Below, in pieces: positions 19,906 to 49,467 of a stretch of DNA of 64,000 nucleotides. The stretch spans positions 8,222-72,221 of the forward strand of contig NZ_VRZC01000003.1 in the NCBI RefSeq assembly GCF_016743215.1, written 5' to 3'. The first letter of the stretch is position 1; each line of letters opens with the position of its first letter. Source of the stretch: Geminocystis sp. GBBB08. Its GTDB lineage: Bacteria; Cyanobacteriota; Cyanobacteriia; Cyanobacteriales; Cyanobacteriaceae. Both the position numbers and the translations under genes were made by a program. The notes below the pieces were generated by a model. It did not search any database and was not told where the DNA came from. It saw only the letters and a list, made by a program, of their open reading frames with translations.

Positions 19906-19920
19906 ATAATTAGGAGTTTT

Positions 19921-19990
19921 AGAATTTGGAATTTAGAATTTAGAATTTAGAATTTAGAATTTAGAATTTAGAATTTAGAATTTAGAATTT
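19921..19990. repeat. Heptamer tandem repeat (AGAATTT)x10
   Basis: Ten units, one with an A-to-G change; shorter runs of the same unit near 17175 and, inverted, near 32052. Confidence 0.92.
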
Positions 19991-20158
19991 ACCATTCTCC
20001 ATTGCCTATTACCTATAGTTGCCCATTCCTTTACCACCTTCAACCTTTCTCCAAATATATTAAGTAAGTAGGGGCTGCTGAATTAATGAGAAAGCTATAA
20101 GAATAAATGATTTAAACACACTACATTAACAACAAAAAAATGCACAGTTTTAGCAAGT

Positions 20159-23209: not shown

Positions 23210-23244
23210 AACCTGAAACCTGAAACCTAAAACCTGAAACCTGA
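23210..23244. repeat. Heptamer tandem repeat (AACCTGA)x5
   Basis: Five units, one variant, upstream of the porin gene. Confidence 0.85.
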
Positions 23245-23379
23245 AAATCACAGAATTGATAATTTGCATAAAATTAATTCAATAATTGTGTTCTAAAACA
23301 CTAAAACACTGGTCAAGGATAAAATTTTGTGCTAATAATTATATGTAGATAAAAAAAGGTGTGAGAAACTTTTAAAATT

Positions 23380-25338: not shown

Positions 25339-25830
25339 TTAATTAAAATTAACATCGGTATATAAATTTAATATGGGAAAAGATACTTCAATAGATTCTA
25401 AATTAACCTCGATATTTTCTCCTTGAGTTTCTTGAAATAACCACTGATTTTCACCCGTTTTGACATAATTTTCAATGGTATATTCTGACTGACTAATTAA
25501 TAAATATTGTTTTAAAGTAGGAATAGAACGATAATAACGAAATTTATCTCCTCGATCATAATTTTCAGTGGCGGGAGATAAAACTTCAATAATTAAACAG
25601 GGATTTAACACCTCATCTTGACGATTATTATTTAACATTACCTCCCCTTCAATTACCATAATATCAGGATAAGTTGCTTTATTATGAGCAGGAATATATA
25701 ATCTTAAATCACTGATGAAAACTTCACAATTTTTATTTTGAAAAGCTAAATCTAAGATACGAACTAGGTTACGAATAATGCGATTATGATTAATTGTACC
25801 ACATGTCATATCTTTAATTTTTCCATTATG
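25339..25830 (-). pseudogene. Uma2 family endonuclease, 5'-truncated
   Basis: Frame reads TAA then YHNGKIKDMTCGTINHNRI...YPD...IIEVLSPATENYDRGDKF; the usual N-terminus is absent. Confidence 0.7.
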
Positions 25831-26838: not shown

Positions 26839-27435
26839 TTATAACGGAATTAATTCGGGAAAGTTTATTATAATTTGGTCAGAAGTTAATCTTTCTCCTA
26901 ATCTAGCAGGGGAAAAATGAAAAGCGATCGCCCTATATTTATTTTTGTAATTAAGATTAATAAGAGCTTTCAAACCATTAGTTAAGGCTTCCATATCTGC
27001 TAAATCAGTTTCAATATCTAAAACTTCACCTTCAAGGGCTACTATGATCATAACAATAATATTGTCAGTAACGGGGAGAGATAGGGGTGTGTTTTTCTCT
27101 ACTTCCTCTAAATCAGGCTGACTAAGATACCGTTGTGCCGAATCTGTAAATAATTCAGTAACAAAATCTCCGGCTTCGCCTTCATCCCAGAATACATCCC
27201 CTTCATTAGAAGCACTTTGCCAATAGGTTTTATATTGTAATATTGCTTCACAAAGATTAACTAAACATTCTCCCATTACCTCCATATCCCCGTCTGCATC
27301 TACCGCTATCCGAGCATTTTGGTTTAAAACTCCTAATAAAGGTGCAATGTCGTTTCCTTGTAAATGAATAAAAATTCTTGAAACAACATACCTTGTTTTA
27401 CCTACAAATTGATTAAAACGATCGGCTATACTCAT
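26839..27435 (-). CDS. DUF1517 family protein
   Basis: KTRYVVSRIFIHL, YWQSASNEGDVF and WSPA-like FSPARLGERLTSDQIIINFPELIPL end. Confidence 0.7.
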   Translation of the reverse strand: MSIADRFNQFVGKTRYVVSRIFIHLQGNDIAPLLGVLNQNARIAVDADGDMEVMGECLVNLCEAILQYKTYWQSASNEGDVFWDEGEAGDFVTELFTDSAQRYLSQPDLEEVEKNTPLSLPVTDNIIVMIIVALEGEVLDIETDLADMEALTNGLKALINLNYKNKYRAIAFHFSPARLGERLTSDQIIINFPELIPL

Positions 27436-27536
27436 AAATAATTAATAATTGATAGTTAATCATCAGGGAAGAGAATAGAAGAAGGAAGAGAAAAGAGTAA
27501 AAAATTGATGATTCCTCATTCCTTATTCTTTTTTTG

Positions 27537-28379
27537 TTATTTACGCACTAATAAAACAGGACAATTTGCATTTACTCGAACATAGTCGGATAAAGAAGTA
27601 CCTAATAAACGGTCTAAATCAATCAAGTTTTTGGCAATAGAAGGACGGCGATCAGGTGAACCTAATAATAATAAATCAATATTTTTATCCTCAACTAATT
27701 GACAAATTTGTTTACTCGGTCTGCCCCCAGTGACGATACACTTAGTATTTATCCCCATACGTTTCGCTTTGGCTAAAGCAGGTGCTAAGATAGCATTCTG
27801 TTCCATGTCGGCGGTAGATAATTCTAAATCAGGATTCATGTCTGGGTTAACTCTAACTAAGTATAACTGAGCTTCAGAATAGTCTTTAAGCAGGTATAGA
27901 GCTAATTCTAGGGCATAATCAGAAGCAGCAGATTTATCTAAGGCTAACATTACTCGTTTGATTTTACGCACATATATATCATCTTTCACCAGTAGCATAG
28001 GGCGATCGGTAAGTTGAAAGACATATTGACTAACAGAGTTTTCTAAGAAAGATTCTAAACGAGTTAAACCCCTCGATCCCATTAAAATAAGATCAGCATT
28101 AATCTCTTTTGCTGTGCTACAGACAGTATCTTTAGGATCACCTTGTTTTAAGATAGTAGAAACTTTAGTAGGATTGATATTGACATTTTTGACTATATCT
28201 GAGAGAATTTTTCCCCCTTCTTCCCATTTTTCCGCTAAAGCATCGGCGGAGACTTGAGGAGGTATGATGTGAAGAATAGTAATTTCACTTTGTTGAAATG
28301 TGGGAATATCTAACAACATTTTCAACATTTCTTGAGTGTGACCAGTCCCAGAATCAGCATATAAAACTTTATTTAACAT
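27537..28379 (-). CDS. Tandem universal stress protein
   Basis: Two USP domains: LILMGSRG...SVSQYV and LLLLGS...SLSDYVRVNANCPVLLV. Confidence 0.9.
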   Translation of the reverse strand: MLNKVLYADSGTGHTQEMLKMLLDIPTFQQSEITILHIIPPQVSADALAEKWEEGGKILSDIVKNVNINPTKVSTILKQGDPKDTVCSTAKEINADLILMGSRGLTRLESFLENSVSQYVFQLTDRPMLLVKDDIYVRKIKRVMLALDKSAASDYALELALYLLKDYSEAQLYLVRVNPDMNPDLELSTADMEQNAILAPALAKAKRMGINTKCIVTGGRPSKQICQLVEDKNIDLLLLGSPDRRPSIAKNLIDLDRLLGTSLSDYVRVNANCPVLLVRK

Positions 28380-28538
28380 ATTGAACTATTTATTGTTTTT
28401 TCATAAGGATCTTTATTTCTAAAATACAGCGATTCGTCACTGCATAATTTAACATTTTGTAACGAAGAGGGGATATTTCCGTTAATGATAAAAAATGTTG
28501 CTCAAAGATCATTAAACCTTTATCATAGTTAATAAGTT

Positions 28539-28713
28539 GACTACTACGTTGGTGACTGCCAATCAAGTTTTTTGATCTATACTTGAGTTATAAGGAAACT
28601 AACTGAGTTCTCGTAGCAGTAAACCGAGCATTTGTACTCGGAAACGAACACAGAAACGTTGGTATCCCCCTGGTTTTCCAGGTCATAAACTGAGGTAAAA
28701 CGGCGTAGCGGTC
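28539..28713 (+). ncRNA. ssrS: 6S RNA
   Basis: 175-nt non-coding stretch whose ends pair (GACUACUACGUUG with CGGCGUAGCGGUC), with an inner stem CUGAGUUC/GAACACAG and an apical CCGAG/CUCGG hairpin; G-U pairs favour the + strand; GUAAAACGGC motif as I recall from cyanobacterial 6S. Confidence 0.75.
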
Positions 28714-28871
28714 ATATACATCGCTTTTCAGATAAATAAGCCACATTTTTTATTTCTCGCTCATGAAGCTCATGGTGCCAAGGCACCCTTGGCAGAATCC
28801 AAAGTGTGGTTTAAGGAAATAAAAACTGTTGTAATCAGTTATTAGCAACTTATGGTTTTATTTATTAAGGT

Positions 28872-29942
28872 TTAACGGTATTGAGGTTGACAATAAGGGG
28901 AATCTTGACAAGGAAAAGTGTTGATAACGTTAATCATCGAATAAAGACGGCTAAATTTTCTTGATTGTAGATAAAAGCTAATACCTGGTAAATAATCGGT
29001 TTCTGCTTTTTGTTTTTGTGGAGTTGGTAATTTTTCAATTTTTCCTTTGATTAGTATATCACTAAATTTTTCGTTTAATTGTTCAATTTCTAGAGGAGTT
29101 AAGTCATAATTTAATCTCATGACAAATAAATCTTTCAGATAACGACAAGAATGATATACTCGATAAAATTCTTGGATAGCTTTACAAGCACTCTCAACAT
29201 TATCGGTAATAGTGTAAATTTGTGTATCTTCAGGTTGAATATAACCGTTTTCTAAAAGATGATCACAAATATAATTATGCCAACTTTTCCAGTAATTACC
29301 CTCCGGTTTATCGATTAAAATTAAAGGAATAGGCGGTTGTCTTCCTGTTTGACATAAAGTTATGGTTTCAAATGCTTCATCTTGAGTGCCAAATCCACCA
29401 GGGAAAAGTACGATAGCATCACTTTCCTTTAAAAAGAATAATTTGCGAGTAAAAAAATACTTAAAACTAATTAGTTTAGGATCATTTTTGATAAAAGAAT
29501 TAGCATTTTGTTCAAAAGGTAATTTGATATTTAAACCAAAGGATTTTTTTGAGGTTGCTCCTTGATTTCCCGCTGCCATAATACCTCCTCCTGCACCAGT
29601 TAACACCATAAAACCTAACTCAGTAACTTTTTGAGCAAAATCTTTAGCTAATTTATATTCTAAGGTATCAACAGGTGTTCTAGCTGATCCAAAAATGGTT
29701 ATTTTACGACACTGACGATAATCAGAAAAAACTCTAAATCCTTTTTCTAAATCTTTTAAGGTAGCTGTCAAAATTTTCCATTCTAAAGAATCAACTTGAT
29801 TTTTTTTGACAATTTTTGCTAATATCTTTAAAGATCTTTTTAACCATTTATTATTTTCATAATCTGGCAATTTATTTAACAAACGTTGAAGATTTTTCGG
29901 TTGATATAAATAAGTTTTATCAGACGGTGTTAATAAAGACAT
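28872..29942 (-). CDS. LOG family nucleotide-binding protein
   Basis: ITIFGSAR, TGAGGGIMAAGN, FKYFFTRK and FPGGFGTQDE. Confidence 0.88.
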   Translation of the reverse strand: MSLLTPSDKTYLYQPKNLQRLLNKLPDYENNKWLKRSLKILAKIVKKNQVDSLEWKILTATLKDLEKGFRVFSDYRQCRKITIFGSARTPVDTLEYKLAKDFAQKVTELGFMVLTGAGGGIMAAGNQGATSKKSFGLNIKLPFEQNANSFIKNDPKLISFKYFFTRKLFFLKESDAIVLFPGGFGTQDEAFETITLCQTGRQPPIPLILIDKPEGNYWKSWHNYICDHLLENGYIQPEDTQIYTITDNVESACKAIQEFYRVYHSCRYLKDLFVMRLNYDLTPLEIEQLNEKFSDILIKGKIEKLPTPQKQKAETDYLPGISFYLQSRKFSRLYSMINVINTFPCQDSPYCQPQYR

Positions 29943-29950
29943 TTTCTTTC

Positions 29951-29987
29951 AAATAAAAAATTCCCACGAAATAATCATAACGTGGGA
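29951..29987 (-). terminator. Probable intrinsic terminator after trxA
   Basis: Minus strand TCCCACG-loop-CGTGGGA followed by ATTTTTTATTT. Confidence 0.5.
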
Positions 29988-30007
29988 TAATGCAAAGGTT
30001 ACAGTAA

Positions 30008-30334
30008 CTAATCAATATACTTATCTAAAGTATTAGAAAGAGTATTTTTAGGCACCGCACCAACTACAGTTTCTTTAACTTCCCCTTCGTTAAATACAAT
30101 CAAGGTAGGAATGCTACGAATTCCATAATCAGTAGCAATTTTAGCATTTTCATCGGTGTTGACTTTTACTACTTTGACTTTGCCGTCATATTGTTGAGCA
30201 ATTTCGTCAACTACAGGAGCTACCATGCGACAAGGACCACACCAAGGCGCCCAAAAATCAACCAATACAGGAAGATTACTCTCTAAGACAACCTCTTTAA
30301 AATCCGCTTCTTTGACTTCTGTCACTTCTGACAT
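30008..30334 (-). CDS. trxA: Thioredoxin (m-type)
   Basis: [18 protein letters not shown] and YGIRSIPTL. Confidence 0.97.
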
Positions 30335-30584
30335 TTTACTTATCCCTTAACTAGATTATTTGCATTTAAAATATTATCAGATTTTACCATAGCAAATATT
30401 TGATCTCTTGCTCTCAATTATTTCTATAAGTTTACATAATTTGACTTAAATACCATTTTAATGTACTTGAGGCGATCGACTGAGAATAAGTAACAATTAA
30501 GAATTAATCAGTAATAGGGATTGCTATAGTATGCTTAGAAAAGGACTATTGCCAAATTTTAGGGACTTTTTTTGTCAATTTCTA

Positions 30585-31796
30585 ATGTTTTTAAGTACTT
30601 TTATTGTTGATAATTTACCTTTCGATATTGATTTATTACCTTCTGATGGTTATTTAGTAGGCGGTGCAGTTAGGGATGTATTACTAAATCGGACTAAAAA
30701 ATATTTAGATTTAGATTTTGTGTTACCTCATTCGGTAATTAAAATAGCGAAAAATATTGCTAATTTATATCATGCTGGTTTTGTGGTGTTAGATTCAGAA
30801 CGAAACATTGCTAGGGTAGTTTTTCCTCATGCTACCATCGATTTTGCTCAACAGGAAGGTGATTCCATCGAAAAAGATTTATTGAGACGAGATTATACGA
30901 TTAATGCCATCGCTTATAATTGTCAGGAAAAAAAATTAATTGATCCTTTAAATGGTCAAAAAGATTTAAAACAGAAGATAATGAGAATGATCTTGATGAA
31001 AAACTTGGAAGATGATCCTTTACGATTGTTAAGAGGTTATCGTCAGGCTTGTCAACTTAATTTTACCATTGAATCTGAAACCCGTAAAGCCATTAGAGAA
31101 TTAACTCCCCTTTTAATAAAAGTTGCACCTGAAAGAATTAATAGTGAATTTACTTATTTATTAGAGAGTGAGAATGGCACTTATTGGCTAAAAGAGGCTT
31201 TTAAAGATGGTTTATTATCTATTTATTGGCAAAATCTCGATGAAGAAAAGATAAAATATTTAAACAAAATTGATTTTTGGATTGGATGGTTACGAGAAAA
31301 TTTTAATGATTTTAAAAATATTAATGTAGAGGCTTATAGCAGTGCAAAATTAGCTTGTTTAACAGACAATAATATAGACATTGCACAAAAAGAATTAGTG
31401 AATCTAAAATATTCTCGTCAAGAAATTAAAGCAGTAATAATTATTCTGAAATATACTTCTCGTTTATTAGAAGAAGATTTTTCGACTAATTTATCGTCAC
31501 AATATTTTTTCTTTTTATCCGTAGGTAAAATATTCCCTAATTTAGCAATTTTTGCTCTTGCCCATGATATTTCTCCTAATTTAATTACTATGTTATTTGA
31601 GCGTTATTTAGATAATCAAGATTCTGTGGCACATCCACAACCCTTACTAACAGGGAAGGATTTAATGGAGTCTTTGAAAATTCCTCCTAGCCCATTAATT
31701 AAACAATTATTAATAGATGTGCAAATTGCTTATATAGAAGGCAAATTTATTGATAAAAATGGGGCGTTACAGTGGATAATGAATCATAGACTATAA
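30585..31796 (+). CDS. tRNA nucleotidyltransferase, probably CC-adding (start 30585 preferred)
   Basis: LVGGAVRD, DLDF, RRDYTINAIA and DDPLRLLRGYR; short segment before RRD (no flexible loop) and no CBS domains, as in split CC-adding enzymes. Confidence 0.85.
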   Translation: MFLSTFIVDNLPFDIDLLPSDGYLVGGAVRDVLLNRTKKYLDLDFVLPHSVIKIAKNIANLYHAGFVVLDSERNIARVVFPHATIDFAQQEGDSIEKDLLRRDYTINAIAYNCQEKKLIDPLNGQKDLKQKIMRMILMKNLEDDPLRLLRGYRQACQLNFTIESETRKAIRELTPLLIKVAPERINSEFTYLLESENGTYWLKEAFKDGLLSIYWQNLDEEKIKYLNKIDFWIGWLRENFNDFKNINVEAYSSAKLACLTDNNIDIAQKELVNLKYSRQEIKAVIIILKYTSRLLEEDFSTNLSSQYFFFLSVGKIFPNLAIFALAHDISPNLITMLFERYLDNQDSVAHPQPLLTGKDLMESLKIPPSPLIKQLLIDVQIAYIEGKFIDKNGALQWIMNHRL

Positions 31797-31816
31797 TTAT
31801 TTTAGATCTTAAGATT

Positions 31817-31984
31817 ATGACCAAAGCTATTATCAATCAAATTAATTCTATCGCTAATAAAAGACAATTATTAATAAAACTATTAGACAAACCGGACTTG
31901 GGTAGTTTGCGTTTAGATGTAAACCAAGCCATTGAGGAGATAGACGAATTAATCGAAGACTTAAATAAAACTTTTAAAAATTGA
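31817..31984 (+). CDS. Small hypothetical protein (55 aa; absent from the ORF track)
   Basis: Hand translation MTKAIINQINSIANKRQLLIKLLDKPDLGSLRLDVNQAIEEIDELIEDLNKTFKN; amphipathic; resembles a conserved cyanobacterial small protein as I recall. Confidence 0.65.
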   Translation: MTKAIINQINSIANKRQLLIKLLDKPDLGSLRLDVNQAIEEIDELIEDLNKTFKN

Positions 31985-32176
31985 TAATAGACTTTTTGCA
32001 CAAGTCGCGGCAACAATGCAATAAGCAACGATGCACAGGGCAAATTTCTTCATTCTAAACTCTAAATTCTAAAGTAGGTTTTGAATTGATATACAAGATT
32101 TAACTATTTATTTCTTATTTCTTATTTCTCATTACGAATTTGAATTCTTTATAAAAAAATTTTTTGACAATAATTC

Positions 32177-32659
32177 ATGATGATTTTATTAAAATTAATT
32201 AGTCTAACGTTAGCATTAATAATCAGTTTTATAACGATAGTTAATCCTGTAGAAGCCTTAGATTATACCAAAAGAGATCTATTTGAAAGTGATTTTTCAG
32301 GACAAGATTTAGTAGGATCAACTTTTAATAAAGCTAATCTTCGTAGTAGCAATTTTAGTCACGCAAATTTACAAGGAGTTAGTTTTTTCGGGGCTAATAT
32401 GGATTCAGCAAATTTAGAAGGTGCTAATTTAACTAACGCAGTATTAGATTCAGCGAGAATGACAAGAGTTAATCTTCATAACGCTATTCTTGAAGGTGCA
32501 TTTGCTACGAATACTAAATTTGAAAAAGCGAATATAGAAGGTGCTGATTTTACAGATGTAATTTTACGTCCTGATTTAGAAGAGTTGCTATGTGAAATGG
32601 CCAGTGGTACTAATCCTGTTACTGGTAGAAATACCCGTGATACTCTTTATTGCTCATGA
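32177..32659 (+). CDS. Exported pentapeptide repeat protein
   Basis: Signal peptide, A(N/D)LXX repeats and C-terminal LC...[14 protein letters not shown]. Confidence 0.92.
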
Positions 32660-32909
32660 TTTTCTTGATTTCAAGTATTATTTCACTTTTATTTTACGGC
32701 CGTTTTTAGATCAATGAACCACAAAAATTTATTATAAATGTACTCTGTGGTGTGCATTGCAAGTTTAGGCAGTGGTTTTCCAATTTGAAAAGTACTATAT
32801 GTTTTAAACATACTGATATATCACAGATTTGCTCACTTTTACCCTAGTTTTTTCTGTTTTAAAGTGGCATAATTCACCCTGAATTAAATCAGGTTTTTAA
32901 TGATTTACC

Positions 32910-33178
32910 TTAAGGGAATATTTGGTAAATTTCTCTACGATGTGTCACTCGTTGACAGATAATAGTTTGATTGGTTTTATCAATGGTTAAGCCAATTCTA
33001 TAATCTCCCACCCTAATTTTATACTTATCTTTATAGCCTTTCATTTTGTTGAGATAACCTAATTCAAAAGGATTCTCGGTTTCTAATTGATTGAAAACAA
33101 TTAACTCTATACGAGATTGTATATCATTTGGTAAAACTGTTATTTCTTTTACAAACTTTTTGATTCAATTTTCCACAT
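32910..33178 (-). pseudogene. RelE/ParE family toxin, frameshifted near the start
   Basis: ATG TGG AAA ATT GAA (MWKIE), then a frame change to KKFVKEI...YKIRVGDYRIGLTID...VTHRREIYQIFP; span of 269 nt is not a multiple of 3. Confidence 0.8.
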
Positions 33179-33377
33179 TCTGATTTTTGATTTCTGCTAA
33201 ATAGTCTAAGGCTTTTTCTTTAGAAAGAGTTTCTTCCTTTTCAACTTCTTCTATCAGTTTTCCTAGTCCATAATCTTCAAGAATTTCTTCGATTTTTTCA
33301 AATTCAGTAATGGAAATCTGAACCGCAATCGGTTTTTGATTAGTGTCTAAGACATAGTTTTTATTGATTTCTAGCAT
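33165..33377 (-). CDS. Putative antitoxin paired with the RelE pseudogene
   Basis: 70-aa acidic ORF overlapping the toxin start; YVLDTNQKPIAVQISITEFEKIEEILED. Confidence 0.7.
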   Translation of the reverse strand: MLEINKNYVLDTNQKPIAVQISITEFEKIEEILEDYGLGKLIEEVEKEETLSKEKALDYLAEIKNQNVEN

Positions 33378-33426
33378 CTACTTTTCTCCAAAAGTCCTCT
33401 ACACTATTATAAACCATCACTTTTTC

Positions 33427-33500
33427 AAAAATCGATGCCAAAGGCACCCGGTGCGCCCGAACCTCCCAAAATCAAGGTAAATTAATCGCTTCAGCAGATT
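33427..33500 (+). repeat. About 73-bp direct repeat R1 (partner R2 at 33741..33813)
   Basis: AAAAATCGAT.CCAAA.GCAC...CCAAAATCAAGGTAAA.TAATCGCTT.AGC.GATT shared by both copies. Confidence 0.8.
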
Positions 33501-33672
33501 CTGGTTGACATTTGCCCTCAGCATACTCTTGTTGAGCTTCCTTGACATCTTTTACTAATTCGGCTCGTTTTTATTCAATAAGACGATTTTTTAAAATCTG
33601 AATTAAGTTTCTTGATCTTCTAAGGGAAGTTGTTGGGAGGCATCTAATATTTCCCTAAAAATTGCTTGTATT
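33477..33672 (-). pseudogene. Degraded small antitoxin-like gene
   Basis: FREILDASQQLPLEDQET, frameshift, IQILKNRLIE-stop-KRAELVKDVKEAQQEYAEGKCQPESAEAI running into R1. Confidence 0.6.
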
Positions 33673-33740
33673 ATAATTCTATTTTATTTCTGATAGTTTT
33701 ATCTTTTCAATTATAAATCTAACAAATTTCCCCCCCCCAC

Positions 33741-33813
33741 AAAAATCGATACCAAATGCACACTGCTTGATCGTACCACCAAAATCAAGGTAAACTAATC
33801 GCTTGAGCCGATT
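33741..33813 (+). repeat. Direct repeat R2
   Basis: Diverged copy of R1. Confidence 0.8.
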
Positions 33814-33891
33814 TAAACTATTGGGAATGTCTGTGAAGATTGTAAAGCGAGTCATGAAGACAACCAACAGTCTTTATCTTCAATTTTCCCC

Positions 33892-34041
33892 TTATTCTGG
33901 ATAATGATACCGACAGGAGATAATGGTTAAATAATCATCAACTCCAGTTTGAGGATTAATCCAGGGGGAGTGAGAAGAACCTTCTCGTTTAAGATAGCAA
34001 CCAGCTATGCGTAACTTCTTTTCTAATTTCTTACGTTTCAT
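33892..34041 (-). pseudogene. HicA toxin 5' half, frameshifted and joined to a YoeB-like 3' end
   Basis: MKRKKLEKKLRIAGCYLKREGSSHS, frameshift, WINPQTGV, then DDYLTIISCRYHYPE-stop. Confidence 0.7.
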
Positions 34042-34244
34042 GGAATGCAAATTTTCTCCTCGATCGCTTCTTGACGAATATCTGCTAAACGATCTTCAAA
34101 AATTAATTGAATGGTACTTTTTAGGCTTTCCTTTGCTTCTTCAATCGTTTCTCCCTGTCCATTTGCTCCGGGTACTTCAGGACAAATAGGCCAGTAACCT
34201 CCTTCAGTTGCTAATTCAATAATGGCGGTAAACTCTGCTTTCAT
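34038..34244 (-). CDS. HicB family antitoxin
   Basis: GGYWPICPEVPGANGQGETIEEAKESL; ATGA overlap with the hicA remnant. Confidence 0.85.
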   Translation of the reverse strand: MKAEFTAIIELATEGGYWPICPEVPGANGQGETIEEAKESLKSTIQLIFEDRLADIRQEAIEEKICIP

Positions 34245-34323
34245 AATAATTTTTTATGCACAATTTCATATTGATTATAGCTTTTTAAGAGTAAATTCAG
34301 GGATGGGTATTGGCTTTGATCTT

Positions 34324-34358
34324 CAAAACCGATCGCGCTCCCAAAACCGATGGCATTA
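34324..34358 (+). repeat. HIP1-like tandem cluster R3
   Basis: CAAAACCGATCGCGCTCC-CAAAACCGATGGCATTA. Confidence 0.75.
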
Positions 34359-34431
34359 CTTAAAAAATTTATAAAATAAAATCACTTAAAAGTTGTAAAA
34401 TCAAAAAATCAAAAAATAGAGGAAAATAATA

Positions 34432-34623
34432 TTGCCGACAGTTAATCAAATGCGACAAGTGGTGATTATATGTCAATATCTATCTAATTTTTATCAGCCA
34501 ATTTATCTATTCAGATATGATGTAGATAGAGAAGAAATATTTATCATTGCTGGTGACCTTGAAAGTATTGAAATAACAATTTTTAGGGATGGTACATGGA
34601 GGTACGAAATTGTTGAACTTTAA
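34432..34623 (+). CDS. DUF6888-like small protein
   Basis: MPT.NQ...CQYLSNFYQPIYLFRYD...IFIIAGD..IEITIFRDGTW; family recognised from memory. Confidence 0.6.
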   Translation: MPTVNQMRQVVIICQYLSNFYQPIYLFRYDVDREEIFIIAGDLESIEITIFRDGTWRYEIVEL

Positions 34624-34804
34624 AGAAATGTCCTTAAATGAATTAAGAAAATATATTTTGAAAAATAGAAAAGATGAAATTGCTTGGAAAGAGTTTGTTA
34701 GTCGTCCTCGCCCTCATGCAATCATCGTAACGGCTGAAACATCACTGGAAGAACAAGAGCGTATTTTGCAAGAAGCTAGTAGAAAAAAACATAGTAGCAA
34801 CTAA
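34589..34804 (+). CDS. DUF6887-like small protein (true start probably 34610-34628)
   Basis: MSLNELRKYILKNRKDEIAWKEFVSR; overlaps the previous ORF like a TA pair. Confidence 0.6.
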   Translation: MVHGGTKLLNFKEMSLNELRKYILKNRKDEIAWKEFVSRPRPHAIIVTAETSLEEQERILQEASRKKHSSN

Positions 34805-34828
34805 AATTAAAATATTATCAATAGGTAG

Positions 34829-34900
34829 GATCGCTCTCCCAAAACTCGATCAAACTTCCAAAACCGATGGCACTCTCTAAAACTCGATCGCACTCCCTCA
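34829..34900 (+). repeat. HIP1-like tandem cluster R4
   Basis: Three to four units of CCAAAAC(T)CGATCGCACTC-like sequence. Confidence 0.8.
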
Positions 34901-34936
34901 AAAAAAATATGCTAAAGGTACGCTGTACACCCATAA

Positions 34937-35194
34937 TTAATAATGAAACTTACAAGAAATAATAACAATCTCTTGATCACAAACACGATATACTAAGCGA
35001 TGCTCTCTCGTAATACGTCGTGATCATAATCCTGATAATTCGTGTTTTAATGCTTCTGGTTTTCCTAATCCAGAAAAAAGATTTCTTTGTATATCTTTAA
35101 TGAGATCAACTATTTTAGTGTAAATTTTTTTGTCGTTAATTGCCCATTGGTTAAATTCATCGAAACTTCTGATTAGAAAAGCTACCTTTCTCAT
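34937..35194 (-). pseudogene. Txe/YoeB family toxin with TGG-to-TGA at codon 57
   Basis: Near-identical to 36193..36450 but reads LSGL-stop-SRRIT; stop at 35024..35026. Confidence 0.9.
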
Positions 35195-35424
35195 AATTTA
35201 GCAGGATCTACATAAATATAGTTATCAGGATTTTTAAGGGATTCTATGGCTTCTTGGAGATGCTGACGGTTAGCAGATGTTGAAAGCAGATAATCTGTTT
35301 CATCCATTTCCGTTGATTCTTGAATTAATAAAATTGCCTCAACCACTGTTCCTTCAGGTAAGTCAATAGTAGGTAAGTTGAGTTGACCGTTTTTTACAGT
35401 TGCTTTATATTTTAGTGCATTCAT
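35191..35424 (-). CDS. YefM-like antitoxin
   Basis: DETDYLLSTSANRQHLQEAI motif; ATGA overlap with the yoeB pseudogene. Confidence 0.8.
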   Translation of the reverse strand: MNALKYKATVKNGQLNLPTIDLPEGTVVEAILLIQESTEMDETDYLLSTSANRQHLQEAIESLKNPDNYIYVDPAKL

Positions 35425-35476
35425 TATGAGTATGTTATGCTAACAACTTTTTAATTTTAACAGTTTTAAGGTTGCT

Positions 35477-35504
35477 TTGGGTTCATCTTCACAACCCAAC
35501 CTAC
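35477..35504 (-). repeat. GTAG-type REP-like palindrome
   Basis: Minus strand GTAG-GTTGGGTT-loop-AACCCAA. Confidence 0.65.
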
Positions 35505-35514
35505 AAACTCAATT

Positions 35515-35570
35515 CCCAAAACCGATTGCCCTCTAAAATTGATCGAACTCCCTAAAACCGATCGCACTCA
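35515..35570 (+). repeat. HIP1-like tandem cluster R5
   Basis: CCCAAAACCGATTGCCCTC-TAAAATTGATCGAACTCC-CTAAAACCGATCGCACTC. Confidence 0.8.
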
Positions 35571-35643
35571 AAAAAAATACTAAGAGAAATCATCTTCAAT
35601 CATGCTAGGATCAAAATGATAAAATTTTATCGACAAATCACTG

Positions 35644-35850
35644 ATGAGACAAGTAATTATCTATCCTGGAGAAAACGGTTATTGGGTTGCTCAATGTCCC
35701 AGTTTACCTCCTTGTATTAGTCAAGGAAAAACAAAAGAGGAGGCAATCTTTAATATTCAAGAAGCAATAGAATTATATCTTGAACTTCTTCGGGAAGAAG
35801 GACGTATTATTCCTGAAGATAAAGTTGACACAGTAACACTTTCCCTATGA
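35644..35850 (+). CDS. HicB family antitoxin
   Basis: GYWVAQCPSLPPCISQGKTKEEAIFNIQEAI. Confidence 0.88.
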   Translation: MRQVIIYPGENGYWVAQCPSLPPCISQGKTKEEAIFNIQEAIELYLELLREEGRIIPEDKVDTVTLSL

Positions 35851-36077
35851 GTAAATTACCTCAAATTTCGGGCAAAGAGTGTATTCAAACATTGGGAAAA
35901 ACAGGTTTTTGCATTAAGCGTCAAAAAGGAAGTCATATTATTCTCTGTCGAGATGATCCTTTTGCTGAAGTAGTAGTTCCTAATCATAAAAATCTTGATA
36001 AAGGAACTCTAAGAGCTATTATCCGACAAGCTGACTTAGAAGTGGACGAATTTATTGAGTTATTAAAGAATAAATAA
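35847..36077 (+). CDS. HicA family toxin
   Basis: GFCIKRQKGSHIIL, VVPNHKNLDKGTLRAIIRQA; ATGA overlap with hicB. Confidence 0.9.
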   Translation: MSKLPQISGKECIQTLGKTGFCIKRQKGSHIILCRDDPFAEVVVPNHKNLDKGTLRAIIRQADLEVDEFIELLKNK

Positions 36078-36100
36078 TTTTTATCAAAATATTGGGGAAA

Positions 36101-36156
36101 TACCCGAACTCCCAAAACTGATCGCACTCTCTCCAAAACTCGATCGCACTCCCTCA
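36101..36156 (+). repeat. HIP1-like tandem cluster R6
   Basis: CCCAAAACTGATCGCACTCTCT-CCAAAACTCGATCGCACTCCC. Confidence 0.8.
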
Positions 36157-36192
36157 AAAAAAATATGCTAAAGGTATGCTGTACACCCATGA

Positions 36193-36450
36193 TTAATAAT
36201 GAAACTTACAAGAAATAATAACAATCTCTTGATCACAAACACGATATACTAAGCGATGCTCTCTCGTAATACGTTGTGACCATAATCCTGATAATTCCTG
36301 TTTTAATGCTTCTGGTTTTCCTAATCCAGAAAAAGGATTTCTTTGTATATCTTTAATGAGATCAACTATTTTAGCGTAAATTTTTTTGTCGTTAATTGCC
36401 CATTGGTTAAATTCATCGAAACTTCTGGTTAGAAAAGCTACCTTTCTCAT
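36193..36450 (-). CDS. Txe/YoeB family toxin, intact
   Basis: NPFSGLGKPEALKQELSGLWSQRITREHRLVY and ISCKFHY. Confidence 0.92.
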   Translation of the reverse strand: MRKVAFLTRSFDEFNQWAINDKKIYAKIVDLIKDIQRNPFSGLGKPEALKQELSGLWSQRITREHRLVYRVCDQEIVIISCKFHY

Positions 36451-36806
36451 AATTTAGCAGGATCTACATAAATTACCTGAGTTCGATATAATCATAAACC
36501 TGAAAATATTTTCTAGTAACGGTTTTCAGTTTTTCCCTCATTTTCTTTGATAAGTTGATATTCCTCAATCACTTGGGCGTATTGCTGTTGATTCTTGTCA
36601 ATTAAGAAGCGAGTCTCCTCACCATCCACATTAATCGCTACTCGGATACCATTATGATCATACTCAAACTCTCAGAAAATGTTGTCGTTATCATACACTA
36701 TTGATAGACTTATGTCAACTCTTTGATAAAATTGACAAAAATAAGATGTATTTGCACAATTAATTTAAACTAGCTATATAAGTTAATTAATAATATAATT
36801 AAGATT

Positions 36807-37346
36807 ATGAGTAAAATTAAAACTCAAGAAGAAGTTGATAAAGAACAACAAAATTTACAAGAGATTTTAATACTTTTAGATCAATTATTTAGACGAGAAG
36901 AAGCTACTGCTAAAAGTATTGTTGGGTGTTTATATGATATTGCAATGATAAATTTAATCAATAAATATTGTCCTTTATGGGGTATTAATTTAACTCTAAA
37001 ATATTTAACTCGTTTACCTCGTCCTGTGGCTCAATCTTTAGGAGTAAAATTATATTTACAGCCAAAATGTCCTCAACTTATCACTGACTGGCTTTATACT
37101 CTTGTAGAGTTTCCTGATAAACCAACGACAACTTTAGAAGCAGAAGTGATAGCCCATGAATTATTTCCTACTCTTCAAGAAAGTAAATTAGAAATCAAAT
37201 CTTTACACCAAAAAGTAAAATTATTGACAAGTGCATTAGTAGTAACAATAGCAATTTTTAGCGGTGGTTTTGCGTGGATTGCCTATAATTTAGACATGAA
37301 TCCAATGCAATTACTGACTACCTCTCAAGGAAATTTAAGAGATTAG
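36807..37346 (+). CDS. Hypothetical membrane protein
   Basis: DQLFRREEATAK...GCLYDI...YLQPKCPQLITDWL, coiled coil and C-terminal TM. Confidence 0.75.
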   Translation: MSKIKTQEEVDKEQQNLQEILILLDQLFRREEATAKSIVGCLYDIAMINLINKYCPLWGINLTLKYLTRLPRPVAQSLGVKLYLQPKCPQLITDWLYTLVEFPDKPTTTLEAEVIAHELFPTLQESKLEIKSLHQKVKLLTSALVVTIAIFSGGFAWIAYNLDMNPMQLLTTSQGNLRD

Positions 37347-37544
37347 ACTTTCATTAATTCATTTGATTAATAATTTTAATTGTTTCAACACTAACAGTAG
37401 TTACTTTTTTTAATAACTCAATTACTTCCTGTTTATAATCAGCAAATCGATAATTATTAAACTTTTGTGCAATAGTTAAATCTTTCAATTTTTTTTCTTT
37501 ATATTGATCTAAAATCTACTCTACAGCTGATAATTGTAGCCTAG

Positions 37545-38615
37545 TTATCTTGTTAATGTCATCAAATGAGAAGCGATAGCATGATCTGGTAGAACTTTTT
37601 TAGCACCACCTAAACGAATAGCTTCCCCGGGCATACCGAAAACTACGGAACTAGCTTCATCTTGAGCGATGGTGTAAGCACCTTGTTGAGACATGGCTAG
37701 TAAACCTTGAGCACCATCTTTACCCATACCTGTCAATAAAACACCAATGGCATTTTTACCGAAAACTTTGGCACAGGAATTAAATGTAACGGTTACAGAA
37801 GGGCAATGCCCATCAACAGGAAGCCCAGTAAAACAGAAAAATCTCCCATTACGATCAAATTCTAAATGATGTTTTTCTCGGGGAAAATAAATATAACCTC
37901 CTTGGGGTTTTTCTCCCGTCATCGCAACTTTTACTTTTAATTGACAATTATTGTTCAACCAATCAATTAAACCATCTAAAAAACCTTCACTGATATGTTG
38001 TACACAGACAATGGGCACAGAAAAATGAGCTGGGATTTTACCTAAAATTTCTAACAATACTTGCGGGCCACCAGTTGAAGTGCCAATAGCAATCATTTGA
38101 ATTTTCTTATGGGAAGAAATAGTTGAAGGAGTACTTTTTACTGGGGTGGATTGGGAAGTAGAGGAACTAGGGATAGGTAGAATAGATGTAGAGGATGATT
38201 TCCGACGAAAAACCTTGATACCCGATAATACTCGAATTTTGGTTAGTAAAGATTCAGTGATAAAATCATAATCTTTAGGTTGTCCGCTACGGGGTTTTGG
38301 AAATATATCTACTGCACCGGCATTTAAAACATCAAAAACGTGTTTTGTATCTTCTTCTTGTACCGACGCACTAATAACTAAAATTGGTTTGGGGAAATTA
38401 GCCATAACTTCCTTTGTAAATTCTAAGCCGTTCATTTTTGGCATATGTAAATCACTACAAATAACGTCTGGATTTAATTTTTTCAGTAATTCCAAACCTT
38501 CAAGACCATTTTTAGCCGTACCGACAACTTGAATATCAGAGGAAGCATTGATAATTTTTTGTAATAATATAGTAGCAACAGGAGAGTCTTCAACGAGTAG
38601 TACTTTTATGGTCAT
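37545..38615 (-). CDS. cheB: Chemotaxis response regulator protein-glutamate methylesterase
   Basis: Receiver domain plus GTSTGGP, VQHIS, HCPSV, LTGMGKDGA and VFGMP. Confidence 0.95.
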   Translation of the reverse strand: MTIKVLLVEDSPVATILLQKIINASSDIQVVGTAKNGLEGLELLKKLNPDVICSDLHMPKMNGLEFTKEVMANFPKPILVISASVQEEDTKHVFDVLNAGAVDIFPKPRSGQPKDYDFITESLLTKIRVLSGIKVFRRKSSSTSILPIPSSSTSQSTPVKSTPSTISSHKKIQMIAIGTSTGGPQVLLEILGKIPAHFSVPIVCVQHISEGFLDGLIDWLNNNCQLKVKVAMTGEKPQGGYIYFPREKHHLEFDRNGRFFCFTGLPVDGHCPSVTVTFNSCAKVFGKNAIGVLLTGMGKDGAQGLLAMSQQGAYTIAQDEASSVVFGMPGEAIRLGGAKKVLPDHAIASHLMTLTR

Positions 38616-38640
38616 TTTTTTAAGAAAAGGTATTTAAAAT

Positions 38641-39717
38641 TTAAGGAGTGGCGATAATGTGTAAATCAATTTGTTTTTTCCAGATTAACTTTATTAATTT
38701 TTGAGTAAAAGAACCTTTAAGAAATTGTTTCCAACGGGATTGTTGACTTTCTCCGATGACAATTTGAGTGATTTTTTCTTTTTCAGCAACTTCGGTGATG
38801 GTATTAGGAACATTATAACTCTTAATTACTAAAAAATTACCCCCAAAATCTTGACACAATTGTTCACAGGTTTCAATATGTAAGGCTTCTGCTTTGGAGA
38901 GAAAATGGTCAGGATTTTGAACAAACAAAACGAATAGAGGGGCATTCATATAATTAGCTAATCTTGCACCCCGACGTAATAAACGTAAAGAATTAGGATA
39001 GGTAGATACACAAACTAACACCCTTTCTTGAATAGAATAAGATTGAGCTGGAGATAAAGATTCTTCTCCTTCTTCTTCAACGGTATCCGCCACTTCCCTT
39101 AAAGCTAGTTCCCTTAAAGCGATTAAATTTTTACGTTGAAAAAAATTTCTTAAAGATTGCTCAATTTTATTACTAGCGTAAATTTTACCTGCTAATAAAC
39201 GTTCTTCTAAGGTTTCTGGGGTAACATCAATGACAACGACTTGATCAGCTTCTTCTAAAATACGATCAGGGATACGTTCTCTAACCACTACACCAGTAAT
39301 TTTTGCTACAAGATCATTAAGGCTTTCTAGGTGTTGAATATTAACAGTAGAATAGACATCAATTCCGGCGTTAAGAATTTCTTCCACATCTTGATAACGC
39401 TTTGGATAACGAGAGTTAGGGATATTAGTATGGGCTAATTCATCAATTAACACTAATTGGGGATGGCGATCGACAATCGCTTTCGTGTCCATTTCTGTTA
39501 GAGTGGGATTAGTTTGAGAAATAGACTTCCGGGGGATAACTTCTAAACCTTTAGCCTGTAATAAAGTCTCTTGACGGTTATGGGTTTCTAAAAGTCCAAT
39601 GACTACATCAATACCTTGTTGTTTAAGACTTTTAGCATCCTGAAGCATTTTATAGGTTTTACCTACTCCTGGTGCCATACCGATAAATATTTTATGTCTG
39701 CCTCGTTTTTTATTCAT
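38641..39717 (-). CDS. kdpD: Truncated KdpD (N-terminal sensor plus USP domain; no TM or kinase domain)
   Basis: KIFIGMAPGVGKTYKML, LIDELAHTN, TVNIQHLESLND and LIALRELAL; ends after the USP domain. Confidence 0.92.
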   Translation of the reverse strand: MNKKRGRHKIFIGMAPGVGKTYKMLQDAKSLKQQGIDVVIGLLETHNRQETLLQAKGLEVIPRKSISQTNPTLTEMDTKAIVDRHPQLVLIDELAHTNIPNSRYPKRYQDVEEILNAGIDVYSTVNIQHLESLNDLVAKITGVVVRERIPDRILEEADQVVVIDVTPETLEERLLAGKIYASNKIEQSLRNFFQRKNLIALRELALREVADTVEEEGEESLSPAQSYSIQERVLVCVSTYPNSLRLLRRGARLANYMNAPLFVLFVQNPDHFLSKAEALHIETCEQLCQDFGGNFLVIKSYNVPNTITEVAEKEKITQIVIGESQQSRWKQFLKGSFTQKLIKLIWKKQIDLHIIATP

Positions 39718-39924
39718 TTTTTTTTCTCGCAAAGGCGCAAAGTCGCAAAGAAATGTACAAAGAGATAATGGTAAGATAAGGACAAGAAATAATTGAGAAG
39801 TGTTATATTAGTTTTAGAAAGTCCTAAAAGTCAACAATTATCTGAAATATAAGTAAATAACTTTGCTGTTAATTGCCTTATATTATACTTATTGCAGAAG
39901 TCAGGGAATAAAGATTAACGAATA

Positions 39925-40197
39925 TTAAAATAGGGTTAATTGCCCTTCTCCTTTTAATTTCCAATGGTTTTCGCAGACTTTTTCGGCAATGTCTTCTAAA
40001 ACAGTCAAAATTGTCTGATTTTCTGGAGTTGTGCCATTTTTTAATAAGGGTAAAATATTTAACACAATCTCATCAAATGTCGTAGTTTTATTTTCCCTTT
40101 CCATTCTTCTTAAATAACTGATTAAATAATATTTAATTCTCAGTTTTACATCAAGATGAGACTTGAATATAGTTTCACGATTTTGTATTACTGTTAC
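39925..40197 (-). pseudogene. Start-less C-terminal gene fragment of unknown parent
   Basis: 90 open codons after a TAG: ...SHLDVKLRIKYYLISYLRRMERENK...DEIVLNILPLLKNGTTPENQTILTVLEDIAE...GQLTLF. Confidence 0.5.
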
Positions 40198-40248
40198 CTA
40201 AAATTTGGTTTTGTGAGGGAAGAGGAATAAATAATCAAATCAAACAGG

Positions 40249-41400
40249 TTATTTTTTGAAAAATAAAGATAGAATGACAACAAAAAGAAAAATTCCCAAA
40301 TAGACGATATAATATTTGATTAATTTATCAAAATCGCTTTTTCTCGGTAAATTTCCTTCTTGTAAAATAATTTTATTAACCTCATTAATACTGTCAATTA
40401 GTTCAATCTGTTTAATTTGAATTTCTTGTAACTGATTCATAAAATTTTCTATCAAATTTTTAGCTGCTTCTTTAGCGTAAATTTCTGCAGGATTAACTAA
40501 TTCTTCCGTAGTGGGTAAAACATCTTTTACTGACTGAATTAAATCATATTTATTAGGTAATTTTTCTTCAATAATATTAATAATTTGCTCGGAAATAAGT
40601 TGTGTTTTTAGCTCAATTTCTTGTGGTTCTTTATGTTCTTTTAAACGAGGTAAAATATGATCATTAATATAAATTTCGGTATTTAATAATAATTGAGATT
40701 CCATTTTTTCTACTATCACTAAAGGAATCATCACCATGACACTTAAAAATAATGCTAATAAAGTAGTATCAAAGGCGATCGCCAATCCCGTAGTTACAGT
40801 AGCAATACCCTCTTTAATTTGATCAACTTGTGCAGTATTGTTAAGGAAACCATTAAAACCATTAACAGCCTGACTAATACCCAATACCGTACCGATAAAT
40901 CCCAATAAAGGAATAGCCCAGACTAAAATTCGGGGTAAAGCATAAGAAGATTCGGAAGCACTAAGATAAAACGAGCTATCATCTAAGGCTAATTCCGTCA
41001 CAATTTTACGACTACCAGAGAGAATATAAGCATTTAAAATACGACTTAATCGCTTAGTAATCATTGTAGGGGTACGAGCAAAATCTTCTTGAAGAGAAAC
41101 TAATTGATATGATTTATGATCATGAAAATTAATATTATCAGGTACTCCAATTTTATTTAAAATATTGGTTTCTTTGATAATCTTTTGATACTTATTTACT
41201 GTAATAATAGCAACAATACAAGAGAAAAAAATAGCTAAATGTTGGGTAAAACCTCTTTGGTAAAGAAGAATACCTAAATAAGATTGTTGGAAAGGAAAAA
41301 GGATTGCATAAATGATAATTGTTAATCCTAATGCACCGAGAAAAACCTGAATAAAATTAATATCTAATTCGGCTCTACTATTATTATTTATTTGTCGCAT
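40249..41400 (-). CDS. MotA/TolQ/ExbB proton channel family protein
   Basis: WAIPLLGFIGTVLGISQAV and GLAIAFDTTLLAL. Confidence 0.85.
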   Translation of the reverse strand: MRQINNNSRAELDINFIQVFLGALGLTIIIYAILFPFQQSYLGILLYQRGFTQHLAIFFSCIVAIITVNKYQKIIKETNILNKIGVPDNINFHDHKSYQLVSLQEDFARTPTMITKRLSRILNAYILSGSRKIVTELALDDSSFYLSASESSYALPRILVWAIPLLGFIGTVLGISQAVNGFNGFLNNTAQVDQIKEGIATVTTGLAIAFDTTLLALFLSVMVMIPLVIVEKMESQLLLNTEIYINDHILPRLKEHKEPQEIELKTQLISEQIINIIEEKLPNKYDLIQSVKDVLPTTEELVNPAEIYAKEAAKNLIENFMNQLQEIQIKQIELIDSINEVNKIILQEGNLPRKSDFDKLIKYYIVYLGIFLFVVILSLFFKK

Positions 41401-41693: not shown

Positions 41694-41785
41694 TTTTACT
41701 GATGCACAGGCAAGATGCTTGTTTACTGATGCACAGGCAAGATGCCTGTTTTACTGATGCACAACAGGCAAGATGTTTGTTTTAC
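41694..41785. repeat. Three tandem 27-31-bp units, each with an ACAGGCAAGATGCCTGT-type hairpin
   Basis: TTTTACTGATGCACAGGCAAGATGC(C/T)TG repeated just downstream of the ABC ATPase stop codon. Confidence 0.85.
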
Positions 41786-42589: not shown

Positions 42590-42652
42590 TTTCTTTTGAT
42601 GGGTTATTGTTTCTCGCAAAGGCGCAAAGGCGCAAAGAGGTACAAAGAATTC

Positions 42653-44904: not shown

Positions 44905-45181
44905 GAGTACTACTAAAAAGCAACATCCACAAAGACTTTTAAACCTTTGCGTCCTTTGCGCCTTTGCGTGAAAATATCTCTTTAAAATTAAGTACAAAAA
45001 CAAGTAACCTTGCTTAAAAATTAAAGCAAAATCAATCAGTTTTTATAGTTAATAAAAATTAGAAAATTAACAATAATTCATATTAAATTACACCTCAAAG
45101 TCAAATAAAGGTAATCGAATGTAGAGATTTGTCAAAGTCGGAATACCTAAATGAAATTGAGACAAAAAATGCTCATTCTTT

Positions 45182-45310: not shown

Positions 45311-45503
45311 TCACTCTAAAAGTTGATTATATCTTATAGATTCTATTTTCGCTGTAATGGTGAACACAAAATTTAAGGATTGTTTCTCGCAAAGGCGCAA
45401 AGCCCCAAAGAAAGGTACAAAGAATTATTAGTGTCTTAGTTAGTTTTTCTACGAGAGCCAATCCTGTCTCTTTTACTTGTCTTAATTTATCTATAACTGC
45501 TAC

Positions 45504-48802: not shown

Positions 48803-48908
48803 ATTTAGATTGTGAATATTATAGAAATATTATAGTTTTTTATCTCGCAAAGGCGCAAAGACGCAAAGAAGAAAAAAGTTTTTTGGAGGTGAGAGAAGCT
48901 AAATAAAG

Positions 48909-49423: not shown

Positions 49424-49467
49424 ATTTACTTTGTGACTTCTTTGCGCCTTTGCGCCTTTGCGTGAGA

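Follow-up and report, generated by a model that had tools for sequence, protein, structure and literature searches.

The Vibrio superintegron, other sedentary chromosomal integrons and the attC site clusters that have no integron integrase (CALINs) consist of small cassettes that alternate with similar, co-oriented repeats. They are rich in toxin-antitoxin (TA) modules, which can stabilise such arrays, and their cassette content varies between relatives. The pdif (XerC/XerD) modules of Acinetobacter plasmids are also small, often carry TA pairs and have short conserved sites that are found in many contexts. In naturally transformable Neisseria, minimal mobile elements and cassettes flanked by uptake sequences exchange small cassettes through transformation with homologous recombination, and a short motif abundant in the genome assists this. 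In cyanobacteria, the function of the highly iterated palindrome HIP1, an octamer, has been debated for about 30 years, and recent work points to transformation and recombination. HIP1 raises the efficiency of transformation and integration, an effect dependent on both homology and methylation (bioRxiv 10.1101/2024.09.10.611283), and a correlation exists between HIP1 abundance and DNA-uptake genes (bioRxiv 10.64898/2026.06.24.733823). Among described repeats, SDR5 of Nostocaceae comes closest; it is compared here through the descriptions given in the papers that cite it and not through its consensus. These describe SDR5 as 21 nt long and report its insertion between nucleotides 3 and 4 of HIP1 (PMC4390886; PMC5861425), and SDR-like repeats are reported in Nostocaceae only (PMC5861425; bioRxiv 10.64898/2026.06.24.733823). 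Here we describe an array of TA cassettes in Geminocystis sp. GBBB08 which shares with integrons and CALINs the traits listed above, and in which the cassettes are separated by clusters of HIP1-like tandem repeats. The array lies at positions 32910-36473 of the window, i.e. the whole 64,000-nucleotide stretch that was analysed (contig NZ_VRZC01000003.1, positions 8,222 to 72,221).

The existence of this repeat-delimited TA cassette array is confirmed. A first-pass annotation, made from the sequence alone, had read the region as seven TA or TA-like units (hereafter cassettes) separated by six repeat clusters, R1 to R6. This arrangement is borne out, several cassettes being decayed, and nearly every gene call is supported by Pfam. 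The cassettes are modular: they are common to distant relatives, where they occur in differing orders, and neighbouring cassettes meet inside the clusters. The finding is more general than the single window indicated. The window has about 34% G+C and contains 24 HIP1 octamers in 64 kb. Its sole stretch without long open reading frames (ORFs) extends from a pentapeptide-repeat gene (32177-32659) to a gene encoding 179 amino acids (36807-37346) and harbours the array. The array is probably slightly longer on both sides than first delimited. On the left, a degenerate R1/R2-like unit lies at 32719-32747 (plus strand; direct-repeat family D9, 76% identity to 33737-33765). On the right, the remnant of a small gene lies at 36476-36700 (minus strand), recognised from its reading frames and from partial matches in metagenome run X2.

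Clusters R3 to R6 are composed of two to four abutting units with the consensus CCAAAAC(T)CGATCGCACTC, on the plus strand throughout. Their description as tandem HIP1-like units holds, with a measured period of 17-22 nt instead of the 18-20 bp first given. R3 (34324-34359) has two units; it is kept together with the DUF6888 cassette in locus L277 (JGI) and is matched by a profile built from other genomes. R4 (34829-34896), detected by Tandem Repeats Finder (TRF), is formed by half a unit followed by three units and holds the junction of two cassettes. The three units of R5 (35515-35569) are found by pattern, tandem-repeat, motif and profile scans, and the partial unit plus two units of R6 (36103-36152) by pattern, tandem-repeat, mismatch and profile scans. 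The motif GATCGCACTC(CCTC)AAAAAAAATA has three copies, at 34886, 35560 and 36142, and the DUF6888/DUF6887 pair is bracketed by direct repeats that are 76% identical (34325-34365 and 34842-34882). R1 (33426-33500, plus strand; direct-repeat families D4 and D7) belongs to a long-unit subtype, CAAAAATCGATGCCAAAGGCAC...CCCAAAATCAAGGTAAATTAATCGCTTCAGC, and is homologous to positions 1214-1255 of L197, a related metagenome contig. R2 (33740-33813, plus strand) is homologous to R1 (73% for D4, 91% for D7) and to L197 1165-1260. The proposed kinship of R1 and R2 with R3 to R6 stands, but their unit is of a longer type, CAAAAATCGATGCCAAAGGCAC..GATCG.ACC, present as a tandem pair in L197. Likewise the core is HIP1-like, as first described, but the units carry CGATCGC or GATCGC without the full octamer, and flanks like those of the array units are absent from the window's 24 true HIP1 sites. 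Separately, no full HIP1 octamer is found over 13.8 kb (26932-40774, array included), while elsewhere in the window there is about one per 2 kb. ORFs that run across the clusters are translation artefacts, and a protein-coding role for the clusters was dropped.

All six clusters point the same way although genes lie on both strands. This observation of the first-pass annotation is true here and in four other arrays; the chance probability of co-orientation within those four is about 2^-17, clusters being counted rather than units.

The multi-unit cluster is a peculiarity of the array within the window. Searching the 64 kb with a 19-mer and up to 3 mismatches gives 4 matches against 0.02 expected, all in the array, and neither pattern nor motif scans find CCAAAAC(T)CGATCGCACTC as a cluster elsewhere in the window. 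At least two units are present in 4 of the 8 intergenic spacers of the array and in none of the 43 outside it (Fisher p = 2.8e-4). A profile was also built from 23 units, all taken from other genomes and none from the window. Its top three window matches, as well as 6 of its 8 matches below E = 0.1, fall in the array, all on the plus strand, and it gives 2 comparable matches in 97 kb of related Geminocystis loci. An even spread through intergenic DNA, raised at the outset as an objection, is therefore not seen for multi-unit clusters, whereas ordinary cyanobacterial DNA often contains single units of the wider family. This wider family, with the consensus CCAAAA(N)CGATCGCACTCC, is HIP1-derived and found across the cyanobacterial phylum. 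With a loose unit pattern, the genome collection yields at least 119 single matches, mostly due to chance, and viral contigs yield 66 single matches that are chance-like.

The gene content is described from left to right. The first cassette comprises a relE/parE-like toxin pseudogene (32910-33164, minus strand; Pfam ParE_toxin over the C-terminal 44 amino acids) and an intact RelB-like antitoxin gene (33165-33377, minus strand; PF18506, E = 2e-27). The toxin frame has no start codon and continues in frame right behind the relB stop; at position 33162, related metagenome contigs carry 4 additional bases. Between R1 and R2 lies an antitoxin-like pseudogene (33501-33724, minus strand), whose frames show a frameshift and stops and which stands on its own between R1 and R2 in metagenome runs X3 and X5. 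The third cassette combines a chimeric hicA/yoeB pseudogene (33892-34050, minus strand) with a HicB-like antitoxin gene (34038-34244, minus strand; weak matches to HicB_lk_antitox and UPF0150). The chimera, proposed in the first reading, is real: Pfam recognises HicA in its N-terminal part, its tail LTIISCRYHY corresponds to the YoeB C-terminus, and 33895-33930 shares 92% identity with the C-terminal part of the second yoeB in L197. The DUF6888 (34432-34623, plus strand; PF21828, 7.5e-26) and DUF6887 (34589-34804, plus strand; PF21826, 1.3e-15) genes form a pair that is TA-like by layout only. They are followed by a yoeB pseudogene (34937-35194, minus strand), inactivated by a TGG>TGA change and identified by a YoeB_toxin match on the truncated 56-aa ORF and by alignment with the intact copy. 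Its companion is an intact gene for a 77-aa antitoxin in yefM position (35191-35424, minus strand), which has no Pfam match but is also located upstream of yoeB in L192, L193, L194, L197 and L199. The last two cassettes are an intact hicB-hicA pair (35644-35850 and 35847-36077, plus strand; Pfam) and an intact yoeB without an adjoining antitoxin gene (36193-36450, minus strand; PF06769, E = 2.7e-33). The type II TA content is thus RelB/ParE-RelE, two HicA/HicB pairs and two YoeB copies with an upstream antitoxin that is conserved. In a promoter scan of the region, the best promoter-like site (36718-36690, minus strand) is upstream of the orphan yoeB and the gene remnant. Exact-sequence look-ups of the HicA and pentapeptide proteins of the window matched no record.

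The two yoeB copies belong to a 367-nt duplication. Copy A (34853-35219) and copy B (36107-36475) are 97% identical and each include two repeat units, yoeB and 24 nt of yefM. A joint duplication of a cassette and its adjacent repeat had been proposed. The left end indeed falls inside a cluster, but the right end is not in a repeat: it takes in 24 nt from the 3' end of yefM. Copy A has a nonsense yoeB beside an intact antitoxin gene, and copy B an intact yoeB without one. The only matching yefM for the intact YoeB gene lies at a distance of 1 kb and adjoins the inactivated yoeB copy. The orphan yoeB (36193-36450) may therefore rely on the yefM (35191-35424) of another cassette, in which case deletions removing yefM would be penalised.

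Breakpoints were deduced from comparisons between species. The CCA-adding enzyme encoded in the window shows 79% protein identity to its closest Geminocystis relatives, 74% to NIES-3708 and 63% to CENA526. Three relatives have genes for peroxiredoxin and arginine decarboxylase after the CCA gene, and neither an array nor clusters are present there. These different neighbours place the island at a synteny break. Four unrelated metagenome runs contain contigs that are 90-99% identical to the cassettes; the housekeeping genes on either side are not matched, and the matches end at 33436, 33500 and 33724, i.e. at R1 and R2. An 855-nt contig (runs X3 and X5) joins the DUF6888/DUF6887 pair to the third cassette of the window, i.e. 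the sequence that follows R2. Geminocystis sp. CENA526 (L192) has an array of small genes with three co-oriented clusters of the window unit type. Window positions 34831-35467 (R4, the yoeB pseudogene, yefM and the promoter region) are 95.3% identical to L192 at the DNA level, which far exceeds expectation given CCA enzymes that are only 63% identical; the cassette formed by R4, yoeB and yefM is 96.3% identical in L197. Overall, cassettes show 90-96% DNA identity between organisms with CCA enzymes that are only 63% identical. In L277 the order is a hicAB remnant, two units, DUF6888/DUF6887, two units and relE, and window positions 34315-34856 are 90.7% identical to it. At R4, homology to L277 stops at 34856, and homology to L192 begins at 34831. 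The overlap equals one unit, so that two cassettes meet within one unit of R4. The description of the array as modular is thus upheld: cassettes occur elsewhere with other neighbours or in another order, and homology tracts end or overlap inside clusters.

L197 carries two cassettes of yefM-yoeB type with both R1/R2-type and short units. There, an R1-type end is joined directly to the sequence of the third window cassette. L197 also accounts for the apparent deletion joint of run X2. In L199, brnTA, yefM-yoeB and other cassettes alternate with four clusters that share one orientation and contain 5-7 units, each 26 nt long. These clusters have the common core CAAAACGATCGCACT, and their orientation relative to yoeB is opposite to that in the window. 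In several organisms, either the whole hairpin element GTTGGGTTTC...CAACCCAACCTACA or the right half of it recurs beside TA cassettes and clusters (L199 around 2205-2245, L197 around 2440-2500, L201, and L277 around 1770-1790); its remnant in the window, GTTGGGTT..CAACCCAACCTACA, is at 35490-35506 (plus strand). A DUF559 gene (L197 1272-1727, minus strand; Vsr-like endonuclease fold) is flanked by inverted CCCCCCTTACTAAGGGGGG motifs and is inserted midway in a HIP1-type cluster that separates two TA cassettes. Another tandem repeat, with a 64-nt HIP1-containing unit, is present on both sides of the yefM-yoeB cassette of other cyanobacteria (L202 923-1164, L203 1466-1600, L215 2722-2963).

The same design recurs in several cyanobacterial lineages. 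All the loci retrieved were scanned for at least three GATCG cores spaced 14-34 nt apart, which yields L073, L102, L157, L181 and L183; these five loci were retrieved by repeat pattern alone, TA genes being disregarded. L157, from an uncultured cyanobacterium, is an 8-kb array with 30 strict units in one direction against none in reverse, in at least 8 places. Its cassettes encode PIN, DUF6888/DUF6887, BrnT, DUF2281-PIN, HigB, two DUF433/DUF5615 pairs and ParE. Clusters also adjoin DUF433/DUF5615 pairs in L073 (Microcoleus), L183 (Plectonema) and L102 (Calothrix NIES-22), while L181 (Nostoc linckia) has 7 units with no TA gene near. Four of the five pattern-retrieved loci with at least three units thus adjoin TA-like pairs. 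TA-flanked spacers make up an estimated few percent of all spacers, so that this proportion would be very unlikely by chance.

We infer that cassettes move by recombination between the repeats, with involvement of HIP1. In our judgement the chances are about even that HIP1-repeat-bounded cassettes are gained, lost and reshuffled in this way, the recombination being probably homologous and HIP1-stimulated. The locus would be an island of self-contained TA or TA-like cassettes, each having one to a few repeat copies at either end. For an incoming or excised circle, a single crossover between its cluster and a resident cluster would leave the cassette between two direct, co-oriented clusters. Such integration of a circular segment would explain why clusters are co-oriented while genes face either way. 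Conversely, a crossover between the flanking clusters would delete the cassette, and cassettes might be duplicated likewise by recombination within repeats. The likeliest catalyst would be general homologous recombination following natural transformation, a dedicated integrase being less likely, and the CGATCG/HIP1 core may serve as an uptake signal or as a Chi-like stimulator. HIP1-stimulated homologous recombination appears the most economical mechanism because no recombinase is near, several units are present at each junction and boundaries vary. The predominance of TA modules may follow from the fact that segments flanked by direct repeats are easily lost, so that only addictive ones resist. 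The situation would resemble that of the Neisseria cassettes, except that the homology arms of the latter are conserved flanking genes, whereas those of the array would be the repeats themselves.

Several observations weigh against recombination between repeats as the source of the array. No recombination event was observed directly, and the comparisons are between species only, none involving strains of the same species. Units of 17-22 nt that are 70-90% alike are short for RecA-dependent exchange, and those of the window do not contain the full HIP1 octamer. Some breakpoints are off the repeats: the right end of the duplication is inside yefM and the hicA/yoeB fusion is inside genes. The homology boundary on the yoeB side also varies among L192, L197 and L199. 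Cassettes are found without clusters as well, namely yefM-yoeB in G. herdmanii L194 and in L193, and DUF6888/DUF6887 in L278-L280. A hicBA pair on a plasmid of Rippkaea PCC 8801 is 86.5% identical, the identity covering the ORFs alone, and no repeats are present there; the plasmid collection contains nothing further, and a cluster used alone as query finds no match in it. The unit family of the window is seen in none of 80 JGI yoeB loci, and a metagenome scan with a 22-mer of the yoeB junction gives no match. The enrichment beside TA genes rests on a limited sample. Finally, the cassette orders seen in metagenomes could be assembly joins at repeats, which is unlikely because the exact shared stretches do not exceed 20 nt.

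A broader form of the same explanation appears to us possible but doubtful. HIP1-derived tandem repeats would constitute a phylum-wide, integrase-independent platform, acting as portable homology arms that spread TA modules by natural transformation. These arms would also carry an uptake or Chi-like HIP1 signal, and insertion, excision and reshuffling in co-oriented arrays would proceed via the repeats. Other small accessory genes might perhaps use them.

The alternative that survives best is that the clusters are tandem pile-ups of a very small SDR5-type selfish repeat which inserts into HIP1-like sites, recreates its target, accumulates in any tolerant DNA and has no role in cassette movement, TA cassettes merely supplying such spacers or bringing them along. 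Like the array units, SDR5 is described as very short and tied to the HIP1 octamer. The insertion within HIP1 reported for it in the citing papers (PMC4390886; PMC5861425) fits the Calothrix array L102, which has a period of 27-30 nt and full HIP1: a 29-nt unit equals 8 + 21 nt. Both the Calothrix (29-nt) and the Nostoc (about 26-nt) arrays agree with HIP1 plus about 21 nt, as in the SDR5 of these accounts, and share with the window unit the core CAAAA.GCGATCGCACT. The number of units per cluster, which ranges from 2 to 12, also suits a selfish repeat, as do the single units common in ordinary cyanobacterial DNA and the 7 units of L181 without a TA gene. However, SDR5 as described in those papers is dispersed and restricted to Nostocaceae, with no TA link reported, whereas the window units are shorter (17-22 nt), have CGATCGC in place of the full HIP1 and belong to a Geminocystis host. 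The restriction of SDR-like repeats to Nostocaceae in the published account (PMC5861425) and the single direction of all clusters within each array argue against a selfish repeat, and 43 other spacers of the window have none. It also leaves unexplained why the homology tracts of neighbours meet inside clusters and why a cassette is shared jointly with its cluster at 95% identity. We regard it as rather unlikely. Our literature search found no paper linking HIP1-type tandem repeats to TA cassettes, the original SDR5 description being known to us only via citing papers.

Alternatively, a site-specific recombinase encoded elsewhere in the genome might cut in or near the CGATCG core in an integron- or Xer/dif-like manner, the clusters being attachment sites. 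The strict co-orientation of clusters in every array favours such a recombinase, as does the overlap of adjacent homology tracts by one unit. Conservation of about 20 nt of unit sequence from Geminocystis to Nostocales may point to a protein-binding site, and the review literature mentions a connection of HIP1, or of sites internal to it, with site-specific recombination (PMC4390886). The integron likeness put forward in the first-pass annotation is nevertheless one of layout only: six clusters, all on the plus strand, alternate with single cassettes as in an integron or a CALIN, but the cassettes are complete operons that have upstream regions and occupy both strands, not promoterless co-oriented genes. 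Known attC sites are imperfect palindromes of 57-141 nt, whereas the array has tandem direct units of 17-29 nt round a CGATCG core. Folding of the six spacers on both strands gives z values of -0.3 to +0.9 for R2 to R6 relative to shuffled sequences; that of R1 is about -2 and comes from small local hairpins only. The inverted-repeat list of the window shows neither arm pairs nor attC-like inverted symmetry, and no cassette is bracketed; Rfam identifies no family in the spacers. Unlike an integron, the array has no single-strand hairpin and no IntI within about 14 kb, but several units per junction and cassettes with their own promoter regions. The reported lack of an integrase is substantiated: within about 14 kb on either side, the ORFs of at least 110 amino acids (19261-51531) include no integrase, resolvase or transposase according to Pfam, only housekeeping families and two Uma2 genes. 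CALINs too lack a nearby integrase (PMC4889954). No recombinase adjoins the arrays of L157, L192, L197 or L199 either. Several tandem units instead of one site at each junction, varying cassette boundaries and the absence of dyad arms beyond the 6-bp palindrome also argue against attachment sites, and we consider this explanation quite improbable. Three other element classes were rejected. The pdif sites are single 28-bp dyads (two 11-bp arms and a 6-bp spacer) that alternate in orientation, whereas the array units are tandem, co-oriented and without dyad arms. A CRISPR-like array does not fit, the units being abutting and the segments between clusters coding and 300-700 bp long. No inverted-repeat pair surrounds any cassette, as would be expected for a miniature inverted-repeat transposable element or a transposon.

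Very unlikely is a third possibility, that the clusters are cis elements (for insulation or termination, nucleoid protein binding or CGATCG/GATC methylation) in an island made mosaic by illegitimate recombination: on the minus strand the R1-type unit does form a small hairpin with a T run after it, and the units contain methylation motifs in a sequence conserved across the phylum, but clusters occur alike in divergent-promoter, convergent-3' and tandem contexts and so bear no constant relation to transcription, L199 has them inverted with respect to yoeB as compared with the window, promoter- and terminator-like sites are not in excess, and R3 to R6 fold no better than shuffled sequences.

An array with HIP1-derived repeats exactly at the cassette joins provides natural substrates for the idea that HIP1 acts in recombination. 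If cassettes do move by recombination between the repeats, HIP1-type sequences would gain a concrete and testable part in horizontal gene transfer, and cassette arrays could be built without an integron integrase. This may account for the spread and persistence of the very numerous TA modules of cyanobacteria and may offer ready-made landing pads for their engineering. If the repeats are passive, SDR5-like repeats would still extend beyond Nostocaceae, with a preference for TA loci.

The window contains other repeats. A second family of dispersed short tandem repeats is built on the octamer CGCAAAGG or on its complement, of which about three copies follow one another at seven intergenic places (39728-39750, 42615-42637, 44944-44969, 45388-45410, 48846-48869, 49440-49462 and 60531-60552). 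A similar stretch is present in Geminocystis NIES-3708 (L187, around 17621-17667). The two Uma2-family genes (PF05685) are at 25339-25809 and 48203-48802, both on the minus strand; one of them is located between kdpC and a gene for a KdpB-like P-type ATPase and is flanked by CGCAAAGG, as if inserted in the kdp operon. Heptamer arrays of the short tandemly repeated repetitive (STRR) type are formed by TTTAGAA (10.6 copies, 19918-19991), GGCAATG (5 copies, 11895-11930) and AACCTGA (5 copies, 23210-23246). The 27-nt periodic tandem repeats at 62184-63700 are due to a gene (61849-63843, minus strand) for an RTX/haemolysin-type calcium-binding repeat protein with 19 repeat matches. A further tandem repeat of 27-28 nt, with 3.2 copies of the unit TTTTACTGATGCACAGGCAAGATGCTTG (41694-41785), lies just 3' of an ABC-transporter gene.

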